Assembly: GCA_020137815.1 (NCBI GenBank)
Contig: CM035353.1
Coordinates: 4,278,001-4,342,000 of the forward strand
Direction of reading: 5' to 3'
Length of the DNA: 64,000 nt
Origin: Hormiphora californensis
Lineage: Eukaryota > Animalia > Ctenophora
The position numbers and the translations under genes are program-made. Positions 24,363 through 51,140 of the stretch are shown piece by piece; position 1 is the first letter of the stretch, and the number at the start of each line of letters is the position of its first letter. Below the pieces are notes generated by a model, which was not told the DNA's origin, did not search any database, and worked only from the letters and a program-made list of their open reading frames with translations.

Positions 24363-25309
24363 ATGGCGTCTAATGTGAAGTTGGTTATAGTTGGTGATGG
24401 GGCAGTTGGGAAAACATGTTTGATAATGTCATACAAGCTGGAAATTTTCCCAGATGAAAGTGAATACCTCCCAACGTAAGGAGTTTTACAATTTGCTAAT
24501 TAAAATTTGGCTGATACTACTCAATTTGAGATGATATCTAACTAACCCTCATAATTAGAAACTCAATCCTCCTCATATCAGTGTTTATGAGTACTGTTCA
24601 TGCAATCTGACTGTTGATGAGAATCAAGTATCTCTTGGTTTATGGGACACCGCTGGACAGAAAGACTATGATCGCATCCGACCTTTTTCCTACCCGAGAA
24701 CCGATGTTCTCCTTCTATGCTTCTCCGTGGACAATAGAGACTCATTTGGTCATGTTGAATCAATATGGATGCCAGAGGTAATAAAGATACGTTTGGGCTG
24801 TTAAACCGAGCGAAACAAGTAAACAACTAAACAGAACTCGTGAATTAGGTCACGTGACTGGTTATCAGCCAATCAGGTACCAGTATTTCCTGATTCGGTC
24901 GGTTCCTGGCCTGTTTTTTGTAAAGTGCAAACTAGGCCCTATCATTAAATCACCCCTTTAGTTGTCTCATCACTGCCCGGGAGTACCCATCATTCTGGTG
25001 GGGACCAAGGCAGACCTCCGACATGATCCCAATCTGTCGTGCGTTGGTTTAGCAGAGGGAGTGGGCATGGCAAGGAAGATTGGAGCGGTGAAGTTTATGG
25101 AATGTTCTGCTCTAAAGCAGGAAGGTATGTCCATTCAGTGTCCCCCAATTTACACTTTATTTAAATGTTATGTTACCTGGACTCTGATCACTACTGTAGC
25201 TAAACCACCTTGTTTTCACGCAGGACTAAAAGAAGTGTTTGACGAAGCCATTAGGGCTGCTATTGCTGGACAGAATAAGGCCAAGAAAGCTAAATGTACT
25301 CTTTCGTGA
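24363..25309 (+). CDS. Rac/Rho-family small GTPase, paralogue 1 (exons 24363-24475, 24582-24777, 24962-25124, 25224-25309)
   Basis: [39 protein letters not shown], polybasic tail plus CAAX (CTLS). Confidence 0.93.
24803..24908. mobile_element. 109-bp MITE family, diverged copy in GTPase intron 2
   Basis: GGTCACGTGACTGGTTATCAGCCAATCAGG...TCGGTCGGTTCCTG; absent from the homologous intron of paralogue 2. Confidence 0.88.
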
Positions 25310-26016: not shown

Positions 26017-26850
26017 ATGGCGTCTAATGTGAAGGTAGTTATAGTTGGTGATGGGGCAGTTGGGAAAACATGTTTGCTAATTACTTATACCGAGGACACT
26101 TTTCCGAGTGAATACATCCCAACGTAAGGAGTTCTACTAATTACTAGCCAGGCTGAATAACACTGCTAGAACTGTACTTAATTTAAGGCGACTTATTGTG
26201 AATTATTGTGACTTACTAACACTACACTACTGATATCAGTGTTGGTGAGAACTACCAGACCACCCTAATTGTTGAGGAGAATCCAGTATCTCTTCAGTTT
26301 TGGGACACTGCAGGACAAGAAGACTATGATCGTCTTCGACCTCTATCCTATCCGGGAACTGATGTTTTCATTTTGTGTTTTTCCGTGGACAATAGAGATT
26401 CATTTGAGCATACTGAATCAATGTGGATGCCAGAGGTAATAAAAATAAATCCTTAAAAGATAACTTTGGCCTGTATATCCCAAATTTTGGAATTTCAGTC
26501 ACCTGTTAATTCCCTTTAGTTGTCTCACCACTGCCCGGGAGTACCCATCATTCTGGTGGGGACCAAGGCAGACCTCCGATATGATCCCAATCTGTCGTGC
26601 GTTGGTTTAGCAGAGGGAGTGGGCATGGCAAGGAAGATTGGAGCGGTGAAGTTTATGGAATGTTCTGCTCTAAACCAGGAAGGTATGTCCATTCAGTGTC
26701 CCCCAATTTAGCTAAATGAATGCCAACAACCTGGTAACTACTGAACCACTTTGTTTTTATATAGGCTTAAAAGAAGTGTTTGACGAAGCCATTAGGGCTG
26801 CTCTTGCTGGACAGAAGAAGTCCAAGAAAACTAAGTGTACTCTGGCATAA
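26017..26850 (+). CDS. Rac/Rho-family small GTPase, paralogue 2 (exons 26017-26123, 26240-26435, 26520-26681, 26765-26850)
   Basis: [61 protein letters not shown]. Confidence 0.95.
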
Positions 26851-27167: not shown

Positions 27168-27415
27168 GGGGCGCCGTTACGATCTGGGTGTTTGGTGGCC
27201 TGTTTACAGGTGCGCGCTGCCAAAAAAGTTGATTCACTAAAACGGCTCTAACCGCCGAACCACTCAACCGTTTTGGCTCATCCAAAGTTTATCTAGTAGG
27301 CAATGTCAAGGCCTAACCCCAACCCAAACCCCAACCCTAACCCTAACCCTACTTTAGCCCTAACCCTAAAAAACCGTTTGTCAGCACTCACGAAACACCC
27401 AGATTTTAACGCTGG
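27168..27415 (+). repeat. Interspersed repeat of about 270 bp with a telomere-like CCCTAA tract (other copies in opposite orientation at 29275-29488, 30413-30689, 35496-35575; partial at 28300-28352)
   Basis: Shared GCCTGTTTACAGGTGCGCGCTGCCAAAAAAGTTGATTCACTAAAA and CCCTAACCCTAA segments. Confidence 0.85.
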
Positions 27416-27899
27416 CCCCCAGCGCGTACCTGTGCGTTCAGGGGTCTTGGGCGCTAGCCCGGGTCAGGGGGCGTGGGGGGTGAAACCCCCCACAAGCGGG
27501 GTCCAGGGGCGCAGCCCCGGCGGGGGTTTAGGGGATAATGCATCGCATTTCAAGCGCTTCAAAGGTTTTAAAAAAAAGTAAATCTAAGATTTTTCAAGGT
27601 TGTTGAAAACTGTAAAGTTTCAAGTTATCAGAGAACCGTGCTAGGAGCAGGCAGTCTGCTGCAGTCCCTTTCAAATGAAGGAAAACGAGTTGTCTGTAAT
27701 TAAACTGTGTCAGTGCGGGATATAAACTGTCATTTTTATTATTATTATTATTATTATATTACTTAAGCTTAAGCGTAAAAACAGTGCGCGTGCGTTCGCG
27801 GCGTAAATTCTGATTTTGCGCGTGACGAAGCAAATTGTTGCGCTGCGCGCTCGATAATGGATATATATACCATATATATATTTTTTATACTGCTGAATA

Positions 27900-28511: not shown

Positions 28512-29488
28512 ACTTAGACCGACTTTTTTCAAACGGCTATAGCCATGGAACCACTTGGAATGCGCTGCAGCCCCCTCATGCGCGCACCCCCGCAACGAGG
28601 GGACTGGAGGGAATGCCGCGCGCGCGTTTGGCCTGATCCCGGCTGGGTCGAAGATAACTTTGCGGTCGAAAAAACGGCGGTGCTTATAACTTTGGCTCCT
28701 GAAGTCCGTTTGACTTGATTCTTTCACCAGTTGTTAGATCTGACGATTATCTACCTTGCTGTTTTTGAGAGAAGTTAATTGGACTTAAGGAGGCTGAGCA
28801 ATAGCCGTTGAAAGATGGGTTGTTTTCAAAAAGTGACGTCACAGATTCTTGCAGGGACACCTTTTTTAAAATTTCATTCAAATTTTGATTTTACCGCACT
28901 CGATTTTGCGGAGTTTGGTTCATATCTCCTGTTCCTGATAAGATAGAGACCTGAAACCGGTTGCATTTGAAAGCTGTTATCTTCCTCTTTCCAACGCTAC
29001 CAAAACGATTTCTGTACCTTATCTGGAACCGGAGATATGATTGATTATGTATTCCCCCCTAGCGCGGTATTCCCTCCAGGCCCCTTATATTATATTATAA
29101 GGGGCCTGCAACGTATGCCAATGGAACCACATGGCCGATTTGAGTAAACTAAACGGTATCAGTTAGAGAATCGATAGCCCTAACCGATAACCCCAAACCA
29201 AACCCTAACCAGACCCTAACGGATAGCCCTAACCCGTCGCGCGCGCCAAAACTACGAATTGTTAGCAATGAAAGGCACCCAGATTTTAACGTTTTCCGTG
29301 AAAAACGGCCAGCCTTAAAATCTGGGTGTTTTGGGAGTGCTGACAAACGGTTTTCTAGGGTTAGGGCTAAAGTAGGGTTAGGGTTAGGGTTGGGGTTGGG
29401 GTTTGGGTTGGGGTTAGGCCTTGACATTCCCTACCAGATAAACTGTGAATCAGCCAAAACGGTTGAGTGGTTTGGCGGTTAGAGCCAT

Positions 29489-30412: not shown

Positions 30413-30790
30413 TTTTAGTGAATCAACTTTTTTGGCAGCGCGCACCTGTAAACAGCCAGATCGTAACGGCGCCCGTGAAAAACGGCCAGGGTTAAAATCT
30501 GGGTGTTTGGTGAGTAAAAAAGTTAGAGTGCTGACAGATAAACGGTTTTTTAGGGTTAGGGTTGAAGTAGGGCTAGGGTTAGTGTTGGGGTTTGGGTTGG
30601 GGATAGGCCTTGGCATTTCCTACCAGATAAACTTTGAATTAGCCAAAACGGTTGAGTGGTTTGGCGGTTAGAGCCATTTTAGTGAATCTTGAAACTTTAA
30701 AAATAATTAAGGCTATCAACAAAAACATGACCACCTCTCAAGACTTTATTTCACAGTACAAAAGTTCGATTATTAGTTAAATAAAAATAA

Positions 30791-30824
<34 letters not shown>

Positions 30825-31143
30825 TTCCGCGCTTATATACCGCCCATACCCGACGGAAACATGTCAAAATATTGGCGATGTTCCGACGAGTCATCAGAGC
30901 GGTATATCCTAGAGTAAAAATATCGCACACGAACAATTCTGGTTGAAAAAGACAATATATGGAAAACCAAATTAACTGGACTTATCAAACTGGGGGAATA
31001 ACTGGTCCCATAAACCTGTAGATATAATTTTAAACACGCTATACTCACACCTGCTCAAAAAAGGATACCAGATAGCGACTTAATAACATGACTAGAGAGA
31101 GGATGACACTGATTGCCCGCAGACCCCACAACTACAACAAACA

Positions 31144-34137
31144 TTACAACTCAGCCATGGGTTCCCCATCACCCACTCCAAATGCACCAACGAAGAGATG
31201 TGTTTTCAGGCGAGCTTTAAAGGTATCAACGTTGGGGATCGACCTTAACTCGAGGGGTAGCTCATTCCAAATAGCAGGCAGAAATACTGATAGTCTCCTA
31301 CGTCTCAATTTAGAATTGGCGTTGATACTGGTCATCTTGGGGTGTTTTAATCTGTAAGGATCAATAACACTAGTCATCCTTGTTGTCCTGGAGACTCCCC
31401 AGCTTTTATCAAGAGGAACCATTTCCTGGAGGTAACCTGGTGCCGTTCCATAGACTATCTTATAAGCGATTAGACAGGCTTTGAAGTCCAGTCTGTAGGA
31501 GATGGGTAAAATATGACACTGCCTGAAGTATTCCGAGTAATCCTCTTGATGCCCATGGATGTTGAATATAAAGCGTACACAGGAGTTTAGTGTTTTCTGG
31601 AGCCCACCAAGAACTCGGGCCGGAAGTCCACAGTACAGAATATTACTGTAATCAATCCTCGATATAATCAATTGTTTGACCAGCATTATCTTCGTTTGAA
31701 TATCAAAACATCTGTGTAACTGCCAAAGATTCCGTAGTATCAGCCCACACTGTTTCCTCACATTGTTAACCTGTCGTTCAAGATTAAGATTGTGGTCCAA
31801 GAGTATTCCCAAGGTTTTCCCATCTGCTCCACTACATTCACTGGGGAAGATTTCCGTTCCTCCAAAGTTGATAACTGGATCGAAAGAGATTTTACTCAAA
31901 GAACTGCGCTTTCCAAGCAGGATGAATTCCGTTTTGGCCTCATTACACTTCAACCACTGCCCCACCATCCACCGTTTCACCTTCGCCAGACACTCCTCAA
32001 TATCCACCTTCGTCCTAGACCAGCCAGTAGAATCCGTAGGAACCAAACTCACATAGAGCTGGGAGTCGTCTGCATATAACTTTATCCGGAGTCCATATGG
32101 TTCCACAATATCTTGCACAGCTTCAATGTAAAGTAGAAACAAAATAGGACCAAGAAGAGACCCCTGGGGCACTCCACAGAGTAAGGCCAGGGTATCCGAG
32201 AGACAATCACCAACCGAGACTCTAAAAGATCTGGAACTCAGGTAGCTCTTAAACCATTGAAGAGGATCACCATCCACTCCAAACCGTTTCTGCAACACCT
32301 CCAACAACTTTCCATGATCCACTGTGTCAAACGCAGCGCTCATGTCCAAACAGATCAGAGCAACAACATTTCCTTTATCCATCTCACCTAATACATCATC
32401 AAACATGCTGGCTAACAGCGTTTCGCAACTGTGACCAGCACGATAACCGGATTGATGCTTGCCCAGAAGTGAATTGCTTTCAAGGTACTCATTCAGCTGC
32501 GTGAGCACCACCTTTTCTAGGAGCTTAGAAAGGAATGGGATATTAGAGACAGGACGATAGTTACTGAGAGCTTCCCTATCTCCGTACAGATTCTTGATGG
32601 TAGGAAACACGATAGCTTTCTGGAGAGATTCCGCAACTGTAGACTGATGTAGAGATTGGTTTACCATCGATGTTAATACCGGAGCAAGATCCCTAATGCA
32701 CTCCTTTACTACCCAAGTGGGCAACGGATCAAGGTCACAATGTTTGCTTGACATAGACTTCACCACCTTAACAAGTTCCTCCTCCGATATCTCTTTGAAT
32801 TCCTTCCATGTTGAATGACAGGCTTTTCCGGGTTCCTCAAAGTCGCCAGCTTGCTTCTGCTCCTCATTGACTTGGGTTCGAATTTTTTCCACTTTGGAAC
32901 TAAAGAACTGGGAGAAATCATCTGCCAAGTTCTTGGTGTTTGTTGTTTCAGGAAGAATTGTTTCAGCTTTTCCAAGGAGTTTCTGGAGCTTACTTTGCAA
33001 TTTCTTTGGGTCACCTTTGGCAGCAACCAAGTCCTCTTTAATGAAAAGTGACCTCTTTTCCCTATCCATCTTTCCATACAGTTTCTTCAGGTCATTAAAT
33101 CTCCGTTTCGCATCCATAGTTCCAAGTTTCCGCCAACACCGTTCTGCATTCCTCCTCTCTCGAAGTAATCCTCTAAGTTCCTCATCCCTCCATGGCTTAA
33201 ACTTTTTACCAGTCCTCACCCGTTTCCTCGGTACTCGCTTCTCCACTATACCTTCCAGCCAACGATAGAAATTCACCACGCCCTCCTCTGGATCCCTACC
33301 TCCTTCAAAATCTGCCTTCCGCAAGTCCTCTTTAAATCCTTCCAAATCCACTGACTTGTAATCCATGTATTCTCGATGCACTGATTTCTTCAGACAGGAG
33401 TTCGACAGGTCAGGTCTCACTTGAATCCCAAACTGTACTAGGAAGTGATCTGATGTAGTACCATTAGGAAATATGGATATGTCACCTAGAGAAGTTTCTC
33501 TTGTAGTTATCACCAAGTCCAAGGTTCCTCCCAGCTGGTGAGTAGGCAACATTGGTACTCTTTGTTGAAGATCAAATGAATCCAGCAGCTCCAAAAGTTT
33601 CCTTGCATAGAAGTTATTATCATCTTGCACCTGGAAGTTTAGGTCACCAGCGATGATCGGAGTACCTTGCTTCATAACAAGCTCGGAAAGGTAGTCACCA
33701 AACTCCGACAGGAAAGTTGCTTCTGTAAGTCTCGACCTCGGTGTGTACGGAGGACGATAGACATTACAGATTCTCTTCGGTTGATCTCTGTCACTGATCA
33801 GAACCTCTTGTACTTGAAAAGACTTATACTTGGTCTTCACTGGACACTGCCGAAGAACTATGCCATCTCGAAAAAGTATTCCGATTCCTCCACCTCCTCT
33901 GTCTCCTCTGGGGCATGAGAAAATGTCCCATCCATTATCTCTGATTTCTTGAAGTTTTCCAGTGTCCGTTGATTTCAAAAATGTCTCCTGTATAAGACAA
34001 ATATCACAATCCTCCTCTTCCAGATGCGAAATAACACCTCCAGTTTTGTTAATAAGAGAGCGGACATTTAGTGTCCCAATCTTCCAAGTCTTTTCCTGTG
34101 TAGCTCCTCCTTGGTCCTCGTCCAGTACAGGTTTTTT
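31144..34137 (-). CDS. LINE A ORF2: APE endonuclease plus reverse transcriptase (frame extends upstream to the slippery site)
   Basis: IGTLNV, LIQET, GDLNF, SDHF, NYRPVSN, LDMSAAFDTVDH, GVPQGSLLGP, YADD; uninterrupted. Confidence 0.95.
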   Translation of the reverse strand, partial: KKPVLDEDQGGATQEKTWKIGTLNVRSLINKTGGVISHLEEEDCDICLIQETFLKSTDTGKLQEIRDNGWDIFSCPRGDRGGGGIGILFRDGIVLRQCPVKTKYKSFQVQEVLISDRDQPKRICNVYRPPYTPRSRLTEATFLSEFGDYLSELVMKQGTPIIAGDLNFQVQDDNNFYARKLLELLDSFDLQQRVPMLPTHQLGGTLDLVITTRETSLGDISIFPNGTTSDHFLVQFGIQVRPDLSNSCLKKSVHREYMDYKSVDLEGFKEDLRKADFEGGRDPEEGVVNFYRWLEGIVEKRVPRKRVRTGKKFKPWRDEELRGLLRERRNAERCWRKLGTMDAKRRFNDLKKLYGKMDREKRSLFIKEDLVAAKGDPKKLQSKLQKLLGKAETILPETTNTKNLADDFSQFFSSKVEKIRTQVNEEQKQAGDFEEPGKACHSTWKEFKEISEEELVKVVKSMSSKHCDLDPLPTWVVKECIRDLAPVLTSMVNQSLHQSTVAESLQKAIVFPTIKNLYGDREALSNYRPVSNIPFLSKLLEKVVLTQLNEYLESNSLLGKHQSGYRAGHSCETLLASMFDDVLGEMDKGNVVALICLDMSAAFDTVDHGKLLEVLQKRFGVDGDPLQWFKSYLSSRSFRVSVGDCLSDTLALLCGVPQGSLLGPILFLLYIEAVQDIVEPYGLRIKLYADDSQLYVSLVPTDSTGWSRTKVDIEECLAKVKRWMVGQWLKCNEAKTEFILLGKRSSLSKISFDPVINFGGTEIFPSECSGADGKTLGILLDHNLNLERQVNNVRKQCGLILRNLWQLHRCFDIQTKIMLVKQLIISRIDYSNILYCGLPARVLGGLQKTLNSCVRFIFNIHGHQEDYSEYFRQCHILPISYRLDFKACLIAYKIVYGTAPGYLQEMVPLDKSWGVSRTTRMTSVIDPYRLKHPKMTSINANSKLRRRRLSVFLPAIWNELPLELRSIPNVDTFKARLKTHLFVGAFGVGDGEPMAEL

Positions 34138-35309
34138 TCCTCTTTGCTTACACCTGCAGTCCTCTCCATAAGCCGTGCTCGTTCATTGATGTAGGAAGGG
34201 CACCACATACTTGAAGCCGTATGGGTCTTCGAATACTTCTTGTCCTCTCTTGATCCTCCAACTTCACAGTTCACACATTTCATCCTACCAGTCTCGTTGT
34301 TCTTCTTTGCTCTACAGTCTTTCGTCTGATGCGATCCAGCACAGAAGCAGCATATTGGAGTATCCTTTTGGGGGCAGTAAATCGATCCTGCTATATGCCC
34401 AAATCCTTGACAGTGAAAACACTGTATCACATGATACCTGTTCTTGACAAAGTGTTGCCGAAGACCCAAGTTGATCTTATCCCCGTTAGTAGACAAAAGC
34501 CTCCGGATCTCTGGAGCCATCTGGATCACTGCATACCTGTCTCTTTCGCTCACAAACACCACCTTCAACTTCTTGTCCTCATGATAAAGTTTTCTGATAT
34601 CCACATTCTTGTCCAAAATCGCTGCCAGGATAGTCTCCTTTTTCAGTAGGTCTGGGTCCAAATCATTTATAGTTACCTTTGGTTCAAGCTTCTTGGCCTC
34701 CTCTGAGAAAAATGACATGGAACAGTCCTGTGCAAGTGGAGTCAAAACTTTCTCTGCTTCCTTCATCTGGTCTTCATCAGGGAAATACAGCCGGGTATGG
34801 TCACTGTTCACTCTGGATCTCACCACCGGTATCGTCTTCAACGCAGTTTCCACTTTGGGTTTGACCTCATCAGTCCACTTCTTCGCACAGAATCCTGGCC
34901 CTCCTTCCTCATTGATGCCAGTTTTAATATTCACATAGTGTTTCATCGTAGGTGTAACCGGTTCCTCTGGATCACCACCACCAATATCACTTCTACTATT
35001 CTCCATAGGTTTGACCAAAGCAGAGATAGTGGAAACCAGATCCTTGTGCAGCTTTGCAAACGACTCTTTCAGATCAGTCTGGTCTCCAGGAACAGAAAAC
35101 GGTGCCGACGCCGGAAGCATGTTGTAACAGGCTTTGAGAAGATGCCACAACTGAGGTTTATGGACAGACGACGGACAAACAGTGTCACCCCTCCCAAGGC
35201 ACACTAACAAATCACTACCCTTATAATCATTACTAAATACTTCTCCTGCTAACACGTCTTCAAAATCACTCTTAGTGATACATATGTCATAATTACTCGT
35301 AACGGTCAT
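34068..35309 (-). CDS. LINE A ORF1 (gag-like, zinc knuckles)
   Basis: 413 aa with CFHCQGFGH...C, CCFCAGSH...C and CVNC...H...C. Confidence 0.92.
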   Translation of the reverse strand: MTVTSNYDICITKSDFEDVLAGEVFSNDYKGSDLLVCLGRGDTVCPSSVHKPQLWHLLKACYNMLPASAPFSVPGDQTDLKESFAKLHKDLVSTISALVKPMENSRSDIGGGDPEEPVTPTMKHYVNIKTGINEEGGPGFCAKKWTDEVKPKVETALKTIPVVRSRVNSDHTRLYFPDEDQMKEAEKVLTPLAQDCSMSFFSEEAKKLEPKVTINDLDPDLLKKETILAAILDKNVDIRKLYHEDKKLKVVFVSERDRYAVIQMAPEIRRLLSTNGDKINLGLRQHFVKNRYHVIQCFHCQGFGHIAGSIYCPQKDTPICCFCAGSHQTKDCRAKKNNETGRMKCVNCEVGGSREDKKYSKTHTASSMWCPSYINERARLMERTAGVSKEEKNLYWTRTKEELHRKRLGRLGH

Positions 35310-35450
35310 CCTAAAACACCCGTTGCACGCCGGCCAACAACAAACTCTTCACTGATATCACTCGTAAGTTAAGTTAAAGTAGGCCTAACAGAGATCTAAA
35401 AGATTAGAGAATAGATGCTAACACAGTTATCAGGAACGATTGACGGCAAA

Positions 35451-35491
35451 CTCAAATTAATTTGTTTAAAGTAGTGTTGAAAAGTTTGAAA
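35451..35491 (-). other. Spliced-leader exon sequence at the 5' terminus of LINE A
   Basis: TTTCAAACTTTTCAACACTACTTTAAACAAATTAATTTGAG, identical over 40 nt to 39360-39399; SL identity recalled from the ctenophore literature. Confidence 0.85.
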
Positions 35492-35744
35492 ATAAAATCA
35501 ACTTTTTTGGCAGCGTGCACCTGTAAACAGGCCTCCAAACACCCAGATCGTAACGGCGCCCGTGAAAAACGGTCCGTCGAGTGGACACATCGCAAGCTTT
35601 TCTTTGTTCTGTGTTTCTGTTTCTGTGTGCCTTGTTGGTGTTTCGGGTTTGGTGTTTCGGGTTTGGTGTTTCGGGTTTGGTGTTTTGGCCATTTTTGCGT
35701 GGCGGTGCCCTGAACCCTTATGCCCCTTTTTCTCCCATCAAGGT

Positions 35745-37600
35745 ATGGCAAAGAGATCACTTAGATCTGGTACTGGAGAGTCAGTAAAAATCATCACTAG
35801 ATCTGCTAGAAAGTTTGTAATTCCTCCCCTCCTGAAAACAGAACAAATTATGGTGGAAGATATCATCAAACCAGAGATCGACCCACCCTGCACAGACTCC
35901 AAGAGTTCGGAGATTACCGGTATAGCAGATAACACCATCTATTACACATGTGGTGGTTGTGGGGAATCGGGTGTTCACCATTTGGGTTTAGAGTACCGAC
36001 TAGTTAGAACAGCCACGTTAGTGGAGGTTGGTTCTCAAACTGGTGATGCCTCTGAGATTCAAGTAAAGGCTTCTGGAATGATAGGATCAGAGGTTGGAAT
36101 CTTAGACGATGCAATGGAAAGGAATAACCAAAACAATCCTGTCCTAGTTTCTGTTTCTGCTTCTTCGCCAATTATTGCGTCTTCTGCATCTAATAATGGT
36201 AAGTTTTGTGGGGAATCTTTCCAATAACATTCCGTTGCCTTTTACTATGTACTTTGTCAGTTAATTTTTGTCTATTTTCACGCAAACCTATCCAAACCTA
36301 TACTTTCAACTTCCACCTCCAAAGTCGTGCACAGAATTGTTTTGTGCGTTTATCAAATTAACGTGTAACACGTGCAAAAAATTCCAAATTTCAATTTTGG
36401 GGGAACAGATGCAAAAAGTGGATTTTTTATTTTATAAAGTTCTAACCCTCCTTTTTATTTTCAGAAGATACTTCCGAAGATGAGGCTTGCTCTGACTCAG
36501 ATGAAGAGGGATCTTTGGATGAATCTAGTGGTGAGGAAGAGGTTAGCAGCTCTGAAGATGACATGATGCTATGTCTCACAGATGAGACACTCAGTGATTC
36601 CAGTGAAGAAGAAGAAAGTGTTCCACAGAATTCTTCCCAGAAACCCAACTCTACAAAACTCCCTGTTCCCCAGTCACAAATCCTACCTCCGCAATCTATT
36701 AATAACCAACCGACCACTTCCAATCCTGATTGTCGTCGGAAATCTGCCAGGAATAAAAGAGCTAAAGCTGGTCCAGATCAAGAGTCCCTACTGTATTTGT
36801 CTCCTGGGTCCTCGAGTGAAAGAGAGGTCGGTCCTGCTCAAAATAAAACACTCGGTAAAAACATTCGAAATTCGTTAGCAGAGGATTCGACTGAGAAAAA
36901 TGTGCAGAAATCTGGTTACCAGTGTAAAATTGTTCGGTGCTCGGTCGTAAAATCTTCGGAGAAGGACTTGTTTGAGCACGTTAGGATTAAACACTCTGAC
37001 AGAAAACACCGGTGTAATGTCTGTCCAATAGCTTTTAAGCAATCTGGTCACCTTAATCGGCACAAACGCATCCACAGTGGAGATAAACCTCACCAATGTG
37101 ACGAGTGTGGAATGAAGTTTGTTACGAGAAGCACTCTTGAGCGACATCAACTTTCTACTCATAATGACAAAAAAATTGTTTCTTGCCAAAGAAAAAATTG
37201 TGGCGTGAGAGTATTCAAGAATGAGTTGTTCGACCACATCATAACGGCACACCCGAAAGAGAAGTTTCAATGTGATATTTGTCCTATGAGTTTCAAGTCA
37301 TCTAAGAATTTAATGGAGCATGCACGAAACCATAATGGTAATAAACCATACATATGTGAGATCTGTGGGAAGAATTTTTCTTATTTTAGTTCTTATAAAA
37401 GACATGTTGTTGTGCATAATGGAATGCTTCCATTCAAATGTGAGGTCTGTGGTAAACTGTTTTCTCGAGCAGATGATATTAGGAAACATATGAGAATGCA
37501 CACTGGCGAGAAACCGTTTCAATGTTCTTTCTGTGAGAAATGCTTCACATTTCCTTCTCCCAGAAGCGTTCATGAGCTTTCTTGTTCTGCGAAACAATAA
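35745..37600 (+). CDS. C2H2 zinc-finger protein (exons 35745-36198, 36465-37600)
   Basis: Phase-1 intron joins in frame; acidic region then about 8 C2H2 fingers with HTGEKPF/HSGDKPH linkers; pyrimidine tract plus AG just before the ATG (candidate trans-splice acceptor). Confidence 0.9.
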
Positions 37601-38734
37601 TGACAGTCTTGATAATATTAAAGGTTGACATTTGACAATATACCTAGAACTTTCCTCTATCCGATTCCCTCGACCCCTCAGGAGCCTCAAGCATTTTCCA
37701 GATACCCTCGCCTTCCAGAAAAACATTCAAAATCATGTTATGTTTTCTCAACTCATTTATAGATTTATGAAAGGGGAAACCTTGAGGAATGCCACAAATG
37801 AAACTACCGCTGACAATACTTTGAAACAGTTCAGCCACGCCATGCATGTCAAGGTATCCAATTTATTGATTTAGCTTGAATTTGAAATAATTTTAGTTCT
37901 GAGATTCGTTGTCCAGTTAAGATGCGACAATCCCATGTTGTGTAACCAACCCCTTTTGTTATTAGTTGGGGTAAAAAGAAGATTATAAAGAGAAAGAAGA
38001 CGATTATCTTCAATTTATCTGTAAAACTTCAAGTAGAGTCCATCTAGCAAGAACAAGAAAACTCTTTATCAAGGTAGAATATTTCATGTTTTATACTGAT
38101 CGAACGTATTCTCGTTTTGATTCGTTGATATAGGTAGCGAAGTTTCAAGTTACCCAGCCTTTCGCTTGCACCTCTGGGAGATCTCCCGGTGACATCCCCC
38201 AGAAATATCCCTGCTGGGTGGATTATAATTGATTGGCTACCTAGACTGTGTTTCGCAGAACATAACAAACAATTGATGCATTTTCTGCCCTGTGAAACAT
38301 GGTCATACATTTTAACACCCCTCTCTCTCTCTCTCTCTGCAGATCGGATAGGAATGGAGTGGGGGGAGGTTGATAACAAAGGACTTCCGGCTTGACATGT
38401 ACCAAGTAAGAGTGTGCAGTGAGAGACGCTTTGTTATAACGGTCCTCCCTTACAAGTTGCAAGACGTGTATGGTAGAGATGCCCTCTCATTTTGTGTACC
38501 TCTTGAAAGCGGTGGGTGGTTTGTGTGAGAGAGAGAGAAGGAGAGAGAGAGGCCCTCTCACCGTGCACCTATTGAGTGCGGAGAGAGAGAGGCTCTCTCT
38601 TCCTCTGTGGTTACTCCGCTCTTTAATTGTGGGGGCCGAGCAACTACAGAGGAAGCTCATTTCCGGGTGTAAAACTGTGTGAGGGACCCTAATTTGTTGG
38701 AATATTCTGACCCTCAGGGTATTCAATATTCATG

Positions 38735-38903
38735 TGGTGGGCAGTGTGAGGGAGGGTGGAGAAACTAGAGAGAGAGGGCGGGTGGAGAAACTAGTTAGAG
38801 AGGGAGGGTGGAGAAACTAGTTAGAGAGGGAGGGTGGAGTGGTGGGCAGTGTGAGGGAGGGTGGAGTGGTGGGCAGTGTGAGGAGGGTGGAGAAACTAGA
38901 GAG
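38735..38903. repeat. G-rich minisatellite
   Basis: GAGGGAGGGTGGAGAAACTAG(TTA)GA and GTGGTGGGCAGTGT units. Confidence 0.8.
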
Positions 38904-39359
38904 ATGTCTCACTTGGCAGATGAAACTTCCATATGAATAAACTAAATCTGCAGTGTGTGACTTTGCCAGTTAATATATATGTTCTAACCATCCCTTACAA
39001 GTCATGGGCGGTGGGCGAGAGGTTCAAGCATTAAAGTAAATTAATTAAATTAGTGTTTTTAATAGATAATCATAGCTTCCGTTCTTTTGTCTGGACAGAT
39101 GACTGACGTAGAGAAGTTGAAGTTTCAAACTTATCTTTTCTCGTCCCACTCACACTTCAATTCCTCTTCTTCGCTGAACGACTTGAAGTCAGATGGTGCT
39201 CAATCTCTGAGCTTCATGTCCCTGGATCAGGGATCGTGACACTGCTTTGCAGCTTGTTCAACATTCATACGATACTACCAGCACTCAGCACACACAACAC
39301 CTCTGCAGCTGCAGTTGTCGAGGTGTTGTGATCAGAGGAAAGGTTTTTTCTGTCAAGAC

Positions 39360-39399
39360 TTCAAACTTTTCAACACTACTTTAAACAAATTAATTTGAG
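39360..39399 (+). other. Spliced-leader exon sequence at the 5' terminus of LINE B
   Basis: TTCAAACTTTTCAACACTACTTTAAACAAATTAATTTGAG directly after the TSD. Confidence 0.85.
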
Positions 39400-39557
39400 T
39401 GTTCCGCTTGTAATCTCTTTGGCGATCCGTGTCAGTGCTAATTTTCTGGTTTTTGATATCTCTAAGTAGCGTAAATCTCTGTGGGCTTTTTTGAACGTTC
39501 TTGGAGTATTGGGAGTCAGTTTTAGTGCTGTCCAGGAGTGTGAACCGGTGTTTTAGG

Positions 39558-40847
39558 ATGAACGATTTTGATGAAGTTACGAATAGAGAGGAGTTTGATA
39601 GTACTATGGCTAGAACTGTTTTTTCTGATAGGTCGGGGGGTCAGGGTTGTGTTGTCCTGAGGCGTCTGCTCGACGCGGGAAAGGCTCCGGAGGGGGTCAC
39701 CAAAGACCAGCTCTGGATACTCCTGATGAAGACCCATTCTCTGCTACCTTCTGGAACAAGAACACGTTTCGACAGTTGCGGAAGCTCAGTAGCTGACATC
39801 TCTATCGGACATGCAGACTTACTGAAGGAAAGTTTTGAGAGTCTTAAATCTGATTTATTGAGTACGATCGAAAGGAAAGTGGAGGACAAGGTGACAGCGA
39901 TTTTACAGAAAACTGTTTCTGATAATGAAGAGGAGAAAGTGGCTGTACCCCCAATGAGACGTTATGTTGATATCAAGCTAGATACAACTGTCACTGAGGA
40001 TGATGAATCGGTACCGGTGTGTCCTAAAGTGCAATGGGCTGATCATGTAAGGCCTAAAGTGGAGGAGGCACTGAAAGGAGTTCCAGTATTGAATACAGTA
40101 GTCAACAAGGGGAGTGTTAGACTATCGTTCCAGACAGAGGACCAGCTCAAGGAGGCTAAGGATGTTCTATCCCCGGTGTTTGCGCAGGATGTCCAGATGT
40201 TTACGGAAAAGAAAGCCTATCTCGACCCAAGAATTGCGATAAATGATTTGGGAGAGGATTTACTAAACAAGGAGGCACTGTTTGCAGAATTGGCAAGTGT
40301 GAAGAATGAGAGAATCAAGACTCTTGTTGACCAAGGAGAGACATTGAAGGTCATCCATATCAATTCTAGAGGAAAATTTGCGGTGCTTCAGGTGTCACCA
40401 GAGATCCGGAGGGTTATTGCATCGAACAAAGATAAGATATTCCTGAGACTTCGGCAACATTCTGTGCGAGATCGGTTCCATGTAATTCAGTGCTTTCACT
40501 GTCAGGAATTTGGACATGTGGCAGGCTCGATCAGGTGCTCAAAGAAGGATGATTCAGCAGTTTGTGCATTCTGTTCTGGAAGGCATGAGACAAGGGAGTG
40601 TAACAACAGGAAGAGGAATGATGTGGGAAGGATGGTGTGTGTTAACTGTAACAACAGTAGCAGTAGAGAGGACAAAAGATATGCCAAGACCCATATGGCT
40701 TCAAGTGCATTGTGTCCGTACTACATCAATGAACGTGGACGACTGATGGATAGGACAAGTGGTGTGACCAAAGAGGAAAAAAACGGCTACAGGACGAGGG
40801 CAATGGAGGATCTGCGAACAAAACGACTTGGAGGATCGGGACGTTAA
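39558..40847 (+). CDS. LINE B ORF1 (gag-like, zinc knuckles)
   Basis: ATG at 39558 in the same context as LINE A; CFHCQEFGH...C, CAFCSGRH...C, CVNC...H...C. Confidence 0.92.
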   Translation: MNDFDEVTNREEFDSTMARTVFSDRSGGQGCVVLRRLLDAGKAPEGVTKDQLWILLMKTHSLLPSGTRTRFDSCGSSVADISIGHADLLKESFESLKSDLLSTIERKVEDKVTAILQKTVSDNEEEKVAVPPMRRYVDIKLDTTVTEDDESVPVCPKVQWADHVRPKVEEALKGVPVLNTVVNKGSVRLSFQTEDQLKEAKDVLSPVFAQDVQMFTEKKAYLDPRIAINDLGEDLLNKEALFAELASVKNERIKTLVDQGETLKVIHINSRGKFAVLQVSPEIRRVIASNKDKIFLRLRQHSVRDRFHVIQCFHCQEFGHVAGSIRCSKKDDSAVCAFCSGRHETRECNNRKRNDVGRMVCVNCNNSSSREDKRYAKTHMASSALCPYYINERGRLMDRTSGVTKEEKNGYRTRAMEDLRTKRLGGSGR

Positions 40848-43774
40848 ATGTGCATTCGATTATGAACAAAACAGGAGGAGTTATTGCACATCTGGAGGAG
40901 AAGGAATGTGACGTGTGTCTTATCCAAGAAACATATCTGAAGGTCACTGACACGGCTAAAATACAGGAAATAAGAGATAATGGCTGGAACATCTTTTCGA
41001 GTCCGAGGAATGAGCGGTCTGGAGGTGGAATTGGAGTCTTATACCGGGATGGAGTGATGGTAAAATTGGCACCAGTGAAGTACAAGTTTAAAACTTTTCA
41101 AGTCCAGGAGGTTCTAATCGGAGGAGAAGAGGATTTACTGAGACTCTGTAACATTTACAGACCCCCATATACTGGAAAGGCAAGATACACAGAGGCAAAC
41201 TTCCTTGATGAAATCAATGATTACTTCTCTGACCTACTAATGAAAACTGGCAACCCCTTAATTATGGGTGACTTCAATTTTCAAGTTCAGGATGAGGAAA
41301 ATTTCTATGCACGGAAGCTGCTAGAAATGTTGGATTCTTTCGATTTCATGCAGAATGTTCCAGCAGAACCTACTCATGTTAGAGGAGGAACCCTGGATCT
41401 GGTCATTTGTCAACGGGATTTGGCTGGTAAGATGAGGAGGCTTAATATCTTTCCTGAAGGAACTTTGTCGGATCATTTCTTGGTAACAGTGGATGTGGAA
41501 CTTAATACCCCTGGAAAGGATTTCATTACTCGGAAAAGGATTAACATGTATCGTGACTTCAAGTCTGTGGATGTGGAGGCTTTCAGGAGGGAGTTGCAAG
41601 GAGAGTGTCTTGAGGTTCCAGATGGTGCATCAGTGGAGGATACGCTTGGAATTTATGACAAAGCACTGAATAGTGTTGTGGAACGCCTGGTCCAGATGAA
41701 GCGGCGAAAACCAATGAAGAACCGGAGACCTTGGAGGGATAGACAAGATGTGAGAGAAGCTCTCAGAAAGAGGAGGCAAGCGGAGAGAGCTTGGGAGAAA
41801 AACAAGACCGGTTTAAACAAGGCACAGTACAAAGACCTCCAGAGGAAATTTAACAAGATTGACAAAGAGGCAAGGATGGAGTTTGTGAAGAGGAATCTAG
41901 AGGAGGTTAAGGATGACCCAGCGGCTCTCCAGAAGAGACTTGGGCATGTACTGGGGAAGACGGAGACATCGTTACCAAGTGGACCTTCAGATAAGAAATT
42001 GGCGGATGAATTTGCATCATTCTTTAGTGGAAAGATTGAAAAGATCAGGTCGGTTATCCTTGAGGAACAGGAGAGGAATCCGGATGAGGAACCCGTGTCA
42101 TCGGCGGTACATGGAGGATGTACGCTTAATCAGTTTGAGGAAATCTCGGTTGGTGGGCTGATCCAGATGGTGAAGGAACTTTCCAGTAAGACGTGTGATT
42201 TAGACCCTATCCCTACTTGGCTGGTGAAGGACTGTCTCGAGGAGTTAGCGCCAATCCTAACGGAAATTGTAAACAAATCACTGAAGCGGGCATGTGTTCC
42301 TGATGCTCTGCAAGGAGCACTGGTTATGCCTACTATCAAGAACCCGAACGGTGATAAGGACCTGCTGTCGAACTACAGACCGGTATCGAACATAGCGTTT
42401 GTTTCAAAGCTACTGGAAAAGGTTGTCCTCACTCAGTTGAATGGATACCTATGGAAAAATGATCTTCTTAACCCCAACCAATCGGGGTATAGAGTTGGGC
42501 ACAGCTGTGAGACTCTTCTTGCGGGTATGTTTGATGACCTTCTAAAGGATTTGGACTCTGGAAAAGTTGCTGCACTCATGCTTCTTGACATGAGCGCGGC
42601 ATTCGACACGGTGGACCATCAGGCGCTAATTGGAGTATTAGAGAGGAGATTTGGTGTTACTGGATTGGCGTTGGACTGGTTTAGGAGTTACCTAGGATCG
42701 AGGAATTTTCAAGTGAACATACGAGGAGAACTTTCAGCGGCTATTGCCCTTATCTGTGGGGTTCCACAAGGATCTCTGTTGGGACCGGTTCTTTTTCTAC
42801 TTTACATTGAGGAATTACAGGATATTGCCCGGCCATACGGTTTGAGCATCAAGCTCTATGCTGATGACTCTCAACTGTATGTTAGCCTGATACCGACTGA
42901 TGCGGATGGATGGAATGTAACGAAGCAGGCAGTGGAGGAGTGCCTTGGTAACATGAAGAAGTGGATGGTCTCTAACTGGCTAAAGTGTAATGAAGACAAG
43001 ACAGAGTTTGTCCTCCTTGGGAAATCTAGCTCTTTGGAAAAGCTCAATTTTGATCCGGTAATAAACTTTGGGGGTACGTCATTAGTACCAATGAAATGCC
43101 AAGGACAGACTGGAAAAACACTAGGAGTACTACTTGATGATCACCTTACGTTGGAGCGTCAGGTAAATAATGTGAAACGACAATGTGGACTGATGCTGAA
43201 GAACCTCTGGCAAGTTAACAAGTGCCTAGACAAGAGTACTAAGATCCTTCTTGTAAAGCAGTTGGTGATATCAAAGATTGACTATTGTAATATCTTGTAC
43301 TATGGACTGCCACAACGAATCCTTCAAAATCTACAGAAGACTCTGAACTCCTGTATACGGTTTGTCTTTAATCTGAATGGTCATCAAGATGATTACATGG
43401 AGTATTTCAGAGAGGCTCACATTCTTCCGATACAGCAGAGATTAACTTTTAAGGCATGCCTGCTGGCTTACAAGATTGTTCGAGGAACTGCCCCTAGGTA
43501 CTTGTTGGATCTGGTACCTAGGGATGAGGAATATGGATCACTGAGGATGACGAGGGCTACAACTGTTCCAGACTTTTTCCGGCTAAAATATCCCAAACTG
43601 TCAAGTATCAATGCAAACTCGAAGTTGCGTCGAAGAAGACTTTCAGTGTTTCTTCCTGACGTATGGAATGATCTCCCCCTTGAGCTCAGATCAGTTCATC
43701 CTGTTGATCTGTTTAAGACAAGACTAAAGACAAGGTTATTTCAGGAGGCATTCGGATCTGCTTCAGAGTTGTAA
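40778..43774 (+). CDS. LINE B ORF2: APE endonuclease plus reverse transcriptase (frame extends upstream to the slippery site)
   Basis: IGTLNV, LIQET, GDFNF, SDHF, LDMSAAFDTVDH, GVPQGSLLGP, YADD; uninterrupted. Confidence 0.95.
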   Translation, partial: KKRLQDEGNGGSANKTTWRIGTLNVHSIMNKTGGVIAHLEEKECDVCLIQETYLKVTDTAKIQEIRDNGWNIFSSPRNERSGGGIGVLYRDGVMVKLAPVKYKFKTFQVQEVLIGGEEDLLRLCNIYRPPYTGKARYTEANFLDEINDYFSDLLMKTGNPLIMGDFNFQVQDEENFYARKLLEMLDSFDFMQNVPAEPTHVRGGTLDLVICQRDLAGKMRRLNIFPEGTLSDHFLVTVDVELNTPGKDFITRKRINMYRDFKSVDVEAFRRELQGECLEVPDGASVEDTLGIYDKALNSVVERLVQMKRRKPMKNRRPWRDRQDVREALRKRRQAERAWEKNKTGLNKAQYKDLQRKFNKIDKEARMEFVKRNLEEVKDDPAALQKRLGHVLGKTETSLPSGPSDKKLADEFASFFSGKIEKIRSVILEEQERNPDEEPVSSAVHGGCTLNQFEEISVGGLIQMVKELSSKTCDLDPIPTWLVKDCLEELAPILTEIVNKSLKRACVPDALQGALVMPTIKNPNGDKDLLSNYRPVSNIAFVSKLLEKVVLTQLNGYLWKNDLLNPNQSGYRVGHSCETLLAGMFDDLLKDLDSGKVAALMLLDMSAAFDTVDHQALIGVLERRFGVTGLALDWFRSYLGSRNFQVNIRGELSAAIALICGVPQGSLLGPVLFLLYIEELQDIARPYGLSIKLYADDSQLYVSLIPTDADGWNVTKQAVEECLGNMKKWMVSNWLKCNEDKTEFVLLGKSSSLEKLNFDPVINFGGTSLVPMKCQGQTGKTLGVLLDDHLTLERQVNNVKRQCGLMLKNLWQVNKCLDKSTKILLVKQLVISKIDYCNILYYGLPQRILQNLQKTLNSCIRFVFNLNGHQDDYMEYFREAHILPIQQRLTFKACLLAYKIVRGTAPRYLLDLVPRDEEYGSLRMTRATTVPDFFRLKYPKLSSINANSKLRRRRLSVFLPDVWNDLPLELRSVHPVDLFKTRLKTRLFQEAFGSASEL

Positions 43775-44796
43775 TCGGAGGTGTCCTATCCTTCCCCTTT
43801 CCCGTGTCGAGCAGACAATTCTAGCATAGCAATTCCTTACTATTTCCCTTCCTAGGGCTATTATAGCAGGGGGGCTGCTGATGCAGTTGAGCTGACTTTT
43901 GTTTGTAGCATGAGGGCTGCTGGCTCTGTTTCTTTATCCCGATTTATAGTCTGTTATTTAATTGCAGCTAACAAGTTGTTTTCCAGAAGTTTATGTGTCC
44001 CGTTTTTCCTTAGGCTTTTTTCAATTTTTTTGGAGTATATAATCAGTAGATGTGTCTATTTTGTTCTAAGTGAGTCAGGATATTAACAATCTTGGTGTAC
44101 CGCTCTGAATCTGGGCAGTGTTGGACTCATGTCAATGATCCAGCCCTGTCTGGACTGAGCGGTATACTAAAAACCCTTATTATTATTATTAAGACTTTAC
44201 GTAACGCGCAGCCATCTCTCAATAGATGTCATAGCGCGCGCACACCATATATAGAGTCGGATTAGCATATACAGGGTGGTTCAGAAACATGGAGCCACTT
44301 TGAGATAACTAATGTGTCAATACAGTTCGCTCTCCGATGTACAGTGTAATTAGAAACGTATTTTCACAGTCTCTTGACTAGAAAAAGCTTCCCCTGAGAA
44401 TTGAGATCGACAGAGAGTCACTCTTTCCTAAAAATTATCAGCATGTCAACTGACACTGTCAGTTGACAGGCTGATAATGATACAAAGCACCAAGATTTAA
44501 AATATAAATCAAGATCTAATAATAACTAATTAATCAGATATATTTCATCTCTGTCAAGCTGAAGATCCTAGATCTCAAGTGAATGACAGAATTATTACTC
44601 CGAGCATGAACTCCATGATCGCTTTCATGCCCCATCTATCGGGTTCCCGGTATCAACAATATATTTCAGTGCATGGGCTAGTTGTGCCGTGGAGTCGACT
44701 ACCATGTGGTAAGTCCTCCTGTATATCTCTCTTGACGCTATCCACGGTTTCCTCGTTTATCTCCCCTCTAGCCAGTTGGAATCCGAGTTTCAAAGG

Positions 44797-48211: not shown

Positions 48212-51140
48212 CTACGTCAAAGAATTCCCTCATTCTAGTTCTTTTTGGTAGCTTGTACCAATTTTCAGTCGCCCTTACTACTTCCCACTTAACATCCCTC
48301 CATCTTCTTACTGGAAGGTGTTCTAGATAGTATGAAACGATATTCCACCTAATCTCCTTAGTGCTGTCTTGTTGAGTCCTGTAGAGATCCTTTTCTTCGA
48401 AAGAATCTTTGATCTTGGGCGATCCTGTTTCAATTTTTTTCTCCTAGTTTCTTCCTCAAATCTATTGTACTATTGTCTAAGCCTTCCATACTATCACTCA
48501 TAAACTCCAGGACCACGGTGTTCACGATCCTTTCCTTGTTTGATGGAGCTATTCCTCTCATTGATGATGTTCAATTGTCCAGTGATTGACGGGTCGTCCT
48601 TCTCTTTCTAGAGCTTCTGAGTCACTTGATGAGCCGATTATGTCTCCCTATTTCCACATTTGTCCTCAGTTTCCGGACTAGTACCGTAGTTGAATCTAAT
48701 ACTAGGCACCTCAGAAATTCCTGTTTCGCGAGTTCCTTCCATGAGTCCGTAACTTTCCTTTGGGACATCTGAAACGGGAGAGTCCAAAAGTTCTCGTAGA
48801 TTTGGGCCCTGGTTTTTTCCATTGCCCATTCATATTCCAGGTTCCTCTCCAACAGTCGCAGGCTCACGTCTTTACAGATTTCGATGGTTTTTTTATGACG
48901 AGTAGTCATAAATAGTAATGACTGGCCACCAGTGGTAACGAGTAGTGATATTATTATTACTCTCACATTGTTTCATGCTGTCTCTCTATTCTCTATTGCA
49001 TGACCACAACTGAAGCCACAAATTGTTCTAATTGTTATCTATTGTTCTCGACAGCTACAATCTGTCTACAAAGCTTTCTGTATCTATGCTTACAATTAAC
49101 TAAATAATACTTTTCAGACAGTACAAGAGATCCTTTTCTTCGAAAGGATCTTTGATCTTGGGCGATCCTGTTTCAATTTTTTCTTCTAGTTTCTTCCTCA
49201 AATCTATTGTACTATTGTCTAAGTCTTCCATACTATCACTCATAAACTCCAGGACCGTCATGATGGCTGATTTTCCACTCAAATCATCCCGCGTTATCCC
49301 CTTTTTGCATCCTCCATCAATACTAGCCTCCTTTATCATTTTTCTTTCCTCTAGGACTGCCCGTATCACTATCGTGATTGCATAATTCGACACTCCCCCT
49401 TTGGATGCCTGTAATACCGGTGTCCCCTCAAATAATGTTTTGATCGCTTGTACGGTTACCCTGAATACTTCTTCTTGTGTGAACCTGCATAATATAATCG
49501 TTCAAACTTTCATCAATTACAACGTAAAGTTTTTATTGAGGACGCTTATTGTATTGGGAAATGAGCCATTCGAATTAAATTCTTCTGCGGTGGCAATGCC
49601 ACAGCCCCTAAAAGCCGCCGTGTTTTCATGAATAATATAATGTATAATCCTATTTTTATTAATCTAGATTTTAATATCTTACCACTACGTCAAAGAATTC
49701 CCTCATTCTAGTTCTTTTTGGTAGCTTGTACCAATTTTCAGTCGCCCTTACTACTTCCCACTTAACATCCCTCCATCTTCTTACTGGAAGGTGTTCTAGA
49801 TAGTATGAAACGATATTCCACCTAATCTCCTTAGTGCTGTCTTGTTGAGTCCTGTAGAGATCCTTTTCTTCGAAAGGATCTTTGATCTTGGGCGATCCTG
49901 TTTCAATTTTTTCTCCTAGTTTCTTCCTCAAATCTATTGTACTATTGTCTAAGCCTTCCATACTATCACTCATAAACTCCAGGACCACGGTGTTCACGAT
50001 CCTTTCCTTGTTTGATGGAGCTATTCCTCTCATTGATGATGTTCAATTGTCCAGTGATTGACGGGTCGTCCTTCTCTTTCTAGAGCTTCTGAGTCTCTTG
50101 ATGAGCCGATTCTGTCTCCCTATTTCCACATTTGTCCTCAGTTTCCGGACTAGTACCGTAGTTGAATCTAATACTAGGCACCTCAGAAATTCCTGTTTCG
50201 CGAGTTCCTTCCATGAGTCCGTAACTTTCCTTTGGGACATCTGAAACGGGAGAATCCAAAAGTTCTCGTAGATTTGGGCCCTGGTTTTTTCCATTGCCCA
50301 TTCATATTCCAGGTTTCTCTCCAACAGTCGCAGGCTCACGTCTTTACAGATTTCGATGGTTTTTTTATGACGAGTAGTCATAAATAGTAATGACTGGCCA
50401 CCAGTGGTAACAAGTAGTGATATTATTATTACTCTCACATTGTTTCATGCTGTCTCTCTATTCTCTATTGCATGACCACAACTGAAGCCACAAATTGTTC
50501 TAATTGTTATCTATTGTTCTCGACAGCTACAATCTGTCTACAAAGCTTTCTGTATCTATGCTTACAATTAACTAAATAATACTTTTCAGACAGTACAAGA
50601 GATCCTTTTCTTCGAAAGGATCTTTGATCTTGGGCGATCCTGTTTCAATTTTTTCTCCTAGTTTCTTCCTCAAATCTATTGTACTATTGTCTAAGCCTTC
50701 CATACTATCACTCATAAACTCCAGGACCGTCATGATGGCTGATTTTCCACTCAAATCATCCCGCGTTATCCCCTTTTTGCATCCTCCATCAATACTAGCC
50801 TCCTTTATCATTTTTCTTTCCTCTAGGACTGCCTGTATCACTATCGTGATTGCATAATTCGACACTCCCCCTTTGGATGCCTGTAATACCGGTGTCCCCT
50901 CAAATAATGTTACCCGGAATACTTCTTCTTGTGTGAACCTGCATAATATAATCGTTCAAACTTTCATCAATTACAACGTAAAGTTTTTATTGATGACGCT
51001 TATTGTATTGGGAAATGAGCCATTCGAATTAAATTCTTCTGCGGTGGCAATGCCACAGCCCCTAAAAGCCGCCGTGTTTTCATGAATAATATAATGTATA
51101 ATCCTATTTTTATTAATCTAGATTTTAATATCTTACCACT
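48212..51140 (-). repeat. Near-identical tandem duplication (period about 1473 bp) carrying TENT-like fragments
   Basis: 48212-49684 matches 49685-51140; ORFs with ASKGGVSNYA and IKDPFEEKDL are duplicated. Confidence 0.92.

Follow-up and report, generated by a model that had tools for sequence, protein, structure and literature searches.

The window analysed here, a stretch of 64,000 nucleotides (nt) of the Hormiphora californensis genome (assembly GCA_020137815.1, contig CM035353.1, positions 4,278,001 to 4,342,000 of the forward strand), contains two intact retroelements of the long interspersed nuclear element (LINE) type, each with a pair of open reading frames (ORFs); they both begin with the spliced leader (SL) that heads host transcripts. 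The elements lie back to back with a zinc-finger gene between them. LINE A occupies the minus strand, beginning at 35491 and ending near 30787; LINE B occupies positions 39360 to 44190 of the plus strand. ORF1 and ORF2 are open in both. We are highly confident that the element RNA underwent at least one round of trans-splicing before retrotransposition, and we consider it reasonably probable that the leader is renewed in each cycle by trans-splicing at the terminal AG of the integrated leader itself.

The spliced leader at the head of two LINEs

A first-pass annotation of this DNA, made from its letters alone, had pointed out an identical 40-mer at the start of both elements. This was confirmed: the 40-mer occurs exactly twice in the window (35451-35490, minus strand; 39360-39399, plus strand), with 0 mismatches, and 100 shuffled windows gave 0 matches. 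The elements are otherwise diverged, as had been claimed, with protein identities of 60% in ORF2 and 45% in ORF1 and a likeness of 55% between the 5' untranslated regions (UTRs), compared with 48 ± 2% (maximum 54.5%) for 200 shuffles. Two details of the claim need amendment. The identity does not stop exactly after the final AG, since it extends one T further and is then followed by a weak match (45 of 47 nt); and the leader length of 40 nt holds for LINE B, whereas LINE A matches 41 nt.

The 40-mer equals the last 40 nt of the 44-nt H. californensis leader printed in the accessible part of PMC8527503, which bears out the suggestion that it is a ctenophore leader lacking its first bases. Metagenome contigs were scanned by exact match to the last 25 nt of the leader, which returned 107 stretches belonging to 106 loci (L080-L106 with at most 300 nt per side); this selection biases both how alike the loci look over the matched 25 nt and how large a part of the family seems to bear a leader. 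In 93 of the 106 loci the leader lies no more than 12 nt from the contig start, as expected of leader-headed transcripts, and these 93 show 92 distinct 20-mers downstream of the leader and a median distance of 10 nt from leader to first ATG. One further locus, L068, is an SL-RNA gene array made of two tandem 778-bp units, each with a leader exon followed by a GT donor and with a 5S rRNA gene; the alternation of both genes over L068:263-1600 yields the genomic start of the leader, its intron and its upstream sequence, and the SL RNA folds with a z of -3.7. Because of these 93 leader-headed transcripts and this gene array, the 40-mer is a real host spliced leader. The leader exon in L068 begins at A, giving a length of 43 nt, and the heads of A and B are identical to that exon; the additional G of the printed 44-nt leader is probably a cap artefact.

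No leader match was found in viral contigs. Run X22, which is RNA by guess, covered the leader with varied loose ends and reached 6 of 30 bins, chiefly the leader and hardly the LINE bodies; the scant coverage of the LINE bodies was not used, as contigs cannot show absence. Over 39361-39399 the contigs of this run included leader variants with 1-4 differences. PMC8527503 counts 718 leader copies in the H. californensis genome and 491 in that of Mnemiopsis, and the part of the text that was accessible makes no tie between these copies and LINEs.

The leader is part of the inserted DNA. For LINE B, contigs of runs X2 and X6 carry an empty-site allele in which position 39356 is joined to 44193; the 4836 nt skipped are the exact spacing of the two 7-bp target-site duplication (TSD) copies of this element. 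Because of this joint, LINE B must be a polymorphic and therefore young insertion that brought with it no fewer than 38 bases of the leader. The TSD of LINE A comes from sequence alone, no empty site of this element having been seen. The TSD and the leader overlap by 2 bases, the first ones of the leader, in A as in B, so that the earlier placement of the leader within the TSDs stands, by the empty-site allele for B and by sequence for A. A contig of X2 (39380-41951) starts within the leader and continues through the LINE B UTR and ORF1, and one of X9, which bears another organism label, runs from within the leader into the same UTR (39381-39601). Contig depths, which are not copy numbers, were 313.8 for the 5' contig of LINE B, 503.8 and 748.1 for 3' contigs and 35.6 for the empty-site joint; they fit several full-length copies plus more 5'-cut ones. 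LINE A lies within a fragment of about 110 nt of another element, itself within a small repeat.

Leader heads across element groups

Apart from A and B, 12 of the 106 loci are element heads. Six have an ORF1 that is 30-90% identical to that of A or B (L020, L029, L032, L049, L066 and L105), and the UTRs of L098 and L032 are 94% alike. In L063, a LINE encoding an endonuclease, ORF1 could not be aligned with that of A or B. A UTR motif is common to L054, L009, L096 and L101, the proteins of L054 and L009 are alike (E 4e-10), and L054 ends without a reverse transcriptase (RT) gene; these four are likely ORF1-only elements, L096 and L101 being assigned by the motif alone. L054 is frameshifted and terminates in a short repeat, L009 stems from a transcript-rich source, and an Atlas search with the L009 ORF gave leads under 0.9 only. 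In a quick RT tree of 60 of 120 retrieved proteins plus five leader-headed ORF2s, the latter fell on three deep branches of a clade of 37 rows; 5' ends are known for the labelled rows only, which deprives a count of label changes of meaning. No ORF2 relative was found in viral contigs. A LINE-like ORF2 relative of 25% identity in a contig of an archaeal metagenome-assembled genome (L107) is probably contamination and was not used.

Nine loci extend more than 12 nt upstream of the leader, one being the SL gene and eight element heads, and none of these nine is a flanked leader copy heading a host gene. Two sources look genomic, and we take them to be DNA assemblies; of the 11 loci that they supplied, 10 are heads of elements, the SL gene being the remaining one. 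Thirteen genomic-type copies, namely A, B and 11 of the loci, have leader matches that measure 28, 35, 38, 40, 40, 41, 41, 41, 41, 42, 42, 42 and 43 nt. All 13 end on the last base of the exon. At the other end, 12 of the 13 miss the first leader base or more, 4 reach base +1 or +2, and none shares common sequence farther upstream; every element head carries a single leader, with no tandem truncated relics. Judged from these sequences, the leader head is a family-wide trait that extends through the clade and into one or more further groups of LINEs.

The sequence in front of the L063 leader (L063:1-351) resembles a whole intron, with a GT start and a pyrimidine-rich AG end, followed by 4 nt. 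This element may thus have landed close to the start of an exon of the host, with read-through as its means of transcription.

Both ORF2s of the window gave Pfam matches above the cut-off to RVT_1 and Exo_endo_phos, which identifies them as LINEs of the apurinic/apyrimidinic endonuclease (APE) type, and the (TAT)n and (TTA)n tails and the TSDs of 8 and 7 bp are those of such elements. The ORF1s showed only weak Pfam zinc knuckles (E 0.3-0.7), and their Atlas leads, under 0.9, were a zf-CCHC cluster (45% of members) and Gag-like clusters. The RT motifs of A and B resemble, we presume, those of L2. By these features A and B would work like LINEs of the L2/CR1 group of the Jockey superfamily, a putative assignment. 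In the accessible text of PMC4120745, type I ORF1 proteins are those with an RRM followed by CCHC knuckles; the searches with the ORF1s of A and B brought out no RRM.

In the overlap of ORF1 and ORF2, all seven relatives inspected (A, B, L020, L029, L032, L049 and L066) carry an in-phase heptamer A AAA AA(C/T), 67 nt before the ORF1 stop in six of them and 55 nt in L066, with ORF2 in the -1 frame relative to ORF1. Elsewhere in the seven ORF1s (about 8.2 kb) the same in-phase heptamer was found once. We predict that a -1 ribosomal frameshift joins ORF1 to ORF2; if so, one leader-capped RNA yields both proteins. A T-run heptamer was noticed by eye at the ORF overlap of L063.

The position of the junction bears on a first alternative, in which the head derives from an SL-RNA gene or from the SL RNA itself, by gene insertion or template switching, in the style of NeSL, SLACS and CRE or of chimeras of small nuclear RNAs and LINEs. 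It could call on the GT that directly follows the leader in L049 and L066. In A and B the base after the leader is T, not a GT donor, and the window holds no intron, upstream or 5S sequence of the SL gene, save two chance matches of 16-19 nt; because no part of an SL-gene unit is present, the heads of A and B are not SL-gene insertions, in agreement with the first-pass annotation. Nor did the flanks of the 9 heads scored contain such a unit. Among the UTRs, 11 of 12 lack similarity to the SL-RNA intron; the exception, L009, scored p 0.002-0.004, yet host transcripts score equally. The endonuclease is of the APE kind, and the junction falls at the exact exon end in all copies. An origin from the SL-RNA gene is thereby largely refuted, and we regard it as extremely unlikely. 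A likeness between the L049 UTR and the SL intron, noticed by eye, was rejected as lying within shuffles (p 0.29-0.35).

Proposed renewal of the leader and its competitors

Because elements of unrelated groups all have the junction at the precise end of the exon, trans-splicing followed by target-primed reverse transcription is the explanation that we favour. The leader at the head is that of the host, it lies inside the insertion and it is found family-wide, so that the earlier proposal of element RNA trans-spliced before retrotransposition is well supported. In the cycle that we propose, transcription would start at the leader copy or upstream of it, with either read-through or a UTR promoter as its source. 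The terminal AG of the integrated leader would then act as trans-splice acceptor in this transcript, so that the old copy is dropped as outron and a full, capped leader of 43 nt takes its place. ORF1 protein and, by the predicted -1 frameshift, an ORF1-ORF2 fusion would be translated from that RNA. At the 3' ends of A and B a long hairpin precedes the (TTA)-type tail; the RT would recognise this hairpin and use target-primed reverse transcription to copy the RNA, the 5' end of the leader losing 0-5 bases on copying and occasionally more. Stronger downstream YAG sites are probably also spliced, which would give RNAs that are shortened yet translatable.

Renewal would explain why leaders remain identical across lineages with barely alignable UTRs: those of A and B match at 40 of 40 positions, though these two elements were not selected by leader match and are 55% alike in their UTRs and 60% in ORF2. 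It would also explain why 5' ends reach the first base of the leader with nothing common beyond. The terminal AG is the only AG in the 40-nt copy (the 43-nt leader has one at bases 1-2 and one at its end), and it is favoured as acceptor because only this site regenerates a single leader on an unchanged UTR. The idea that the integrated leader serves as the next acceptor, already put forward in the first-pass annotation, gains from this and from the constant junction.

Several observations weigh against it. The proposed acceptor is GAG, whereas host cis-introns end in CAG or TAG at all seven sites sampled (three window genes, two of them paralogues). Each element UTR holds 3-7 YAG sites; in 7 of 9 relatives the ORF1 ATG is immediately preceded by TTTTAG, and in 3 of the 5 heads of a second group the leader is immediately followed by TTT(C/T)AG. 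Efficient trans-splicing should remove such sites, so their retention speaks against renewal. The base after the leader is a T in 9 of 12 genomic-type copies, counting L063, compared with 11 of 93 host transcripts, a bias tempered by the T that follows 4 of the 7 host cis acceptors. Element UTRs measure 141-215 nt, compared with the host median given above, and no transcript of A or B was seen in the contig data, which cannot show absence. By eye, the L096 form equals an L054-like copy spliced at an AG 6 nt downstream; this looks like a sign that element RNAs meet the trans-splicing machinery, and it would equally mean that other acceptors compete with the terminal AG. As X2 and X9 have contigs that cross position 39557 without a break, there is a hint that copies spliced at a downstream acceptor are uncommon.

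Some of these features also fit a rival reading, in which the leader was captured by past trans-splicing, once per element group, and is now inherited as DNA; promoter elements located in either leader or UTR would drive transcription that starts at the leader copy, and selection would preserve its identity as initiator or translation signal. The non-consensus GAG and the retained downstream YAG sites fit such inheritance, and so do the conserved UTR motifs: a motif of 14 nt before the ORF1 ATG, carried by A and B and by 7 of 9 relatives overall, and a hairpin-like motif in 4 of the 5 second-group heads. In nematodes, SL genes have promoter elements inside the exon. A LINE in a trans-splicing host can also do without splicing, as L1Tc makes unspliced RNA from an internal promoter (PMC1874656, in the text accessible). 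Inheritance demands, on the other hand, 40 invariant positions that track the host leader across UTRs that cannot be aligned and across unrelated groups; since 12 of the 13 copies miss leader base 1, it also predicts erosion or common 5' bases derived from the flank, and none were seen. We consider inheritance possible, though clearly less probable than renewal. Under either model the UTR motifs conserved in both element groups could be promoter elements, and the earlier assertion that no internal promoter is involved is therefore unsupported.

The leader might also be a mere passenger, if read-through element RNAs were spliced passively and leader-headed copies were mostly dead ends of masters that start differently. 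In Hydra, about 30% of the Iso-Seq reads of transposable elements bear a leader, DNA transposons included (PMC12220107, in the text accessible), and since our loci were selected through the leader, copies without it could not appear. A master with a natural acceptor upstream of the junction would be needed; no such longer form was seen, single contigs of X2 and X9 span the leader interior through the UTR and ORF1, the ORFs of A and B are intact and B is polymorphic. We judge this explanation quite improbable.

Returning to renewal at the terminal AG, a wider version would be that several unrelated ctenophore LINE groups let the spliceosome of the host define where their 5' end lies, with the last AG of the leader as their own acceptor, any transcript crossing it being trimmed to an exact, capped, full-length RNA and no promoter being needed, and that such copies make up most of the hundreds of unexplained leader copies of ctenophore genomes. 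We offer this version tentatively and think it rather unlikely to hold in full.

Window features and comparison with known systems

Table 1. Parts of LINE A and LINE B in the window (positions counted from the first letter of the 64,000-nt stretch).
Feature	Position	Strand	Details
Spliced-leader copy, head of LINE A	35451..35491	-	41 of 43 exon bases, first 2 within TSD overlap
LINE A 5' UTR	35310..35450	-	141 nt, 38% T, no upstream ATG, 5 YAG sites, conserved acceptor-like motif at ATG end
LINE A ORF1	34068..35309	-	413 aa, Cys/His knuckle region; Pfam zinc knuckle weak, E 0.32
LINE A slippery heptamer, in-phase, predicted -1 frameshift to ORF2	34131..34137	-	
LINE A ORF2	31144..34182	-	1012 aa stop to stop; endonuclease and RT; first Met at aa 170
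LINE A 3' hairpin	30831..30907	-	z -3.5
LINE A (TAT)n tail	30787..30824	-	
LINE A 8-bp TSD, 5' copy	35490..35497	-	TTTTATTT, from sequence
LINE A 8-bp TSD, 3' copy	30779..30786	-	TTTTATTT, from sequence
Fragment hosting the LINE A insertion	30685..30778	-	last part resembles the 3' end of L054, a leader-headed locus (84% over 57 nt)
LINE B 7-bp TSD AAGACTT, 5' copy	39355..39361	+	last 2 nt also leader bases
Spliced-leader copy, head of LINE B	39360..39399	+	40 of 43 exon bases
LINE B 5' UTR	39400..39557	+	158 nt, 41% T, no upstream ATG, 6 YAG sites, same conserved end motif as A
LINE B ORF1	39558..40847	+	429 aa
LINE B slippery heptamer, in-phase, predicted -1 frameshift to ORF2	40778..40784	+	
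LINE B ORF2	40754..43774	+	1006 aa stop to stop; endonuclease and RT
LINE B 3' hairpin	44092..44170	+	z -8.6; outer stem common to A and B
LINE B (TTA)n tail	44177..44190	+	
LINE B 7-bp TSD AAGACTT, 3' copy	44191..44197	+	sequence and empty-site joint

The small repeat around LINE A is of high copy number and has telomere-like TAGGGT runs; it occupies 30421-30688 and 35496-35572, with further copies at 27169-27417 and 29276-29488, and the nesting order at this site is repeat, retroelement end of about 110 nt, LINE A. The gene between the two LINEs (35745-37600, plus strand) encodes a C2H2 zinc-finger protein of 529 aa in two exons and likely belongs to a multi-copy family, as its contig depth is far above that of the unique flank; an AAG that lies two bases ahead of the ATG is a possible trans-splice acceptor for it. 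Two tandem four-exon genes for Rho-family GTPases of 185 and 183 aa (24363-25309 and 26017-26850, plus strand) each have a CAG shortly before the ATG, a candidate trans-splice acceptor. The window also contains a tandem duplication of about 1.47 kb with 98% identity (48212-51140) and tandem arrays at 423-1665 and 12862-13725. A Pfam search with 12 other ORFs of the window returned nothing useful.

Non-LTR elements that adjoin a leader exon are not new as such. NeSL-1, SLACS, CRE and CZAR have restriction-like endonucleases and are located in SL-RNA genes; A and B, in contrast, have an APE domain, varied flanks and a leader that lies within the TSD. With the L2/CR1 LINEs, as treated in the accessible text of PMC4120745, they share two ORFs, APE and RT domains, a short-repeat tail, a 3' hairpin and, putatively, an ORF1 of the type I kind with knuckles, to which they add the leader head and the predicted -1 frameshift. 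L1Tc of Trypanosoma cruzi is likewise a LINE in a host that trans-splices a leader; with its own promoter and unspliced RNA, it represents the opposite solution according to what was accessible of PMC1874656.

Hydra provides a full-length CR1 LINE transcript with a trans-spliced leader; this case is at the RNA level only, and the accessible text of PMC12220107 is silent on genomic copies that start with the leader. In dinoflagellates, RNA bearing a spliced leader is copied by reverse transcription and inserted into the genome, where an AG within the integrated leader is the next acceptor (PMC3229502, in its accessible part, citing Slamovits and Keeling 2008), which makes re-splicing of the leader plausible here as well. 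The dinoflagellate recycling concerns host genes and uses an internal AG, leaving tandem relics, whereas ctenophore element heads are all single.

The literature that we found does not include intact leader-headed LINE families of ctenophores or a self-renewing LINE leader, a search with thin coverage of subscription journals and with Repbase outside it; the accessible parts of PMC12460157 and PMC6362198 contain nothing on integrated leaders. The closest case is a 2025 study of parasitic flatworms, which also have leader sequence in the genome beside retrotransposons. In the accessible text of PMC12582326, 597 partial leader copies near long terminal repeat (LTR) or LINE elements were discarded, and the integration of trans-spliced retrotransposon RNA was suggested; these copies were a filtering by-product within 500 bp of repeats, and that text gives no anatomy of the elements. 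The case described here comes from another phylum; its elements are intact and flanked by TSDs, one of them has an empty-site allele, the junction is constant and the pattern extends across the clade. The basic idea is therefore already in print for flatworms, and what is added here is the anatomy, a polymorphic insertion and the finding that several groups of LINEs in one animal lineage share the habit. Leader-headed LINEs offer a countable explanation for the leader copies of the H. californensis genome, which mislead gene annotation. Furthermore, LINEs must rebuild their 5' end in every cycle, and the known answers to this need are internal promoters and ribozymes; renewal by trans-splicing, if true, would be another, in an animal.

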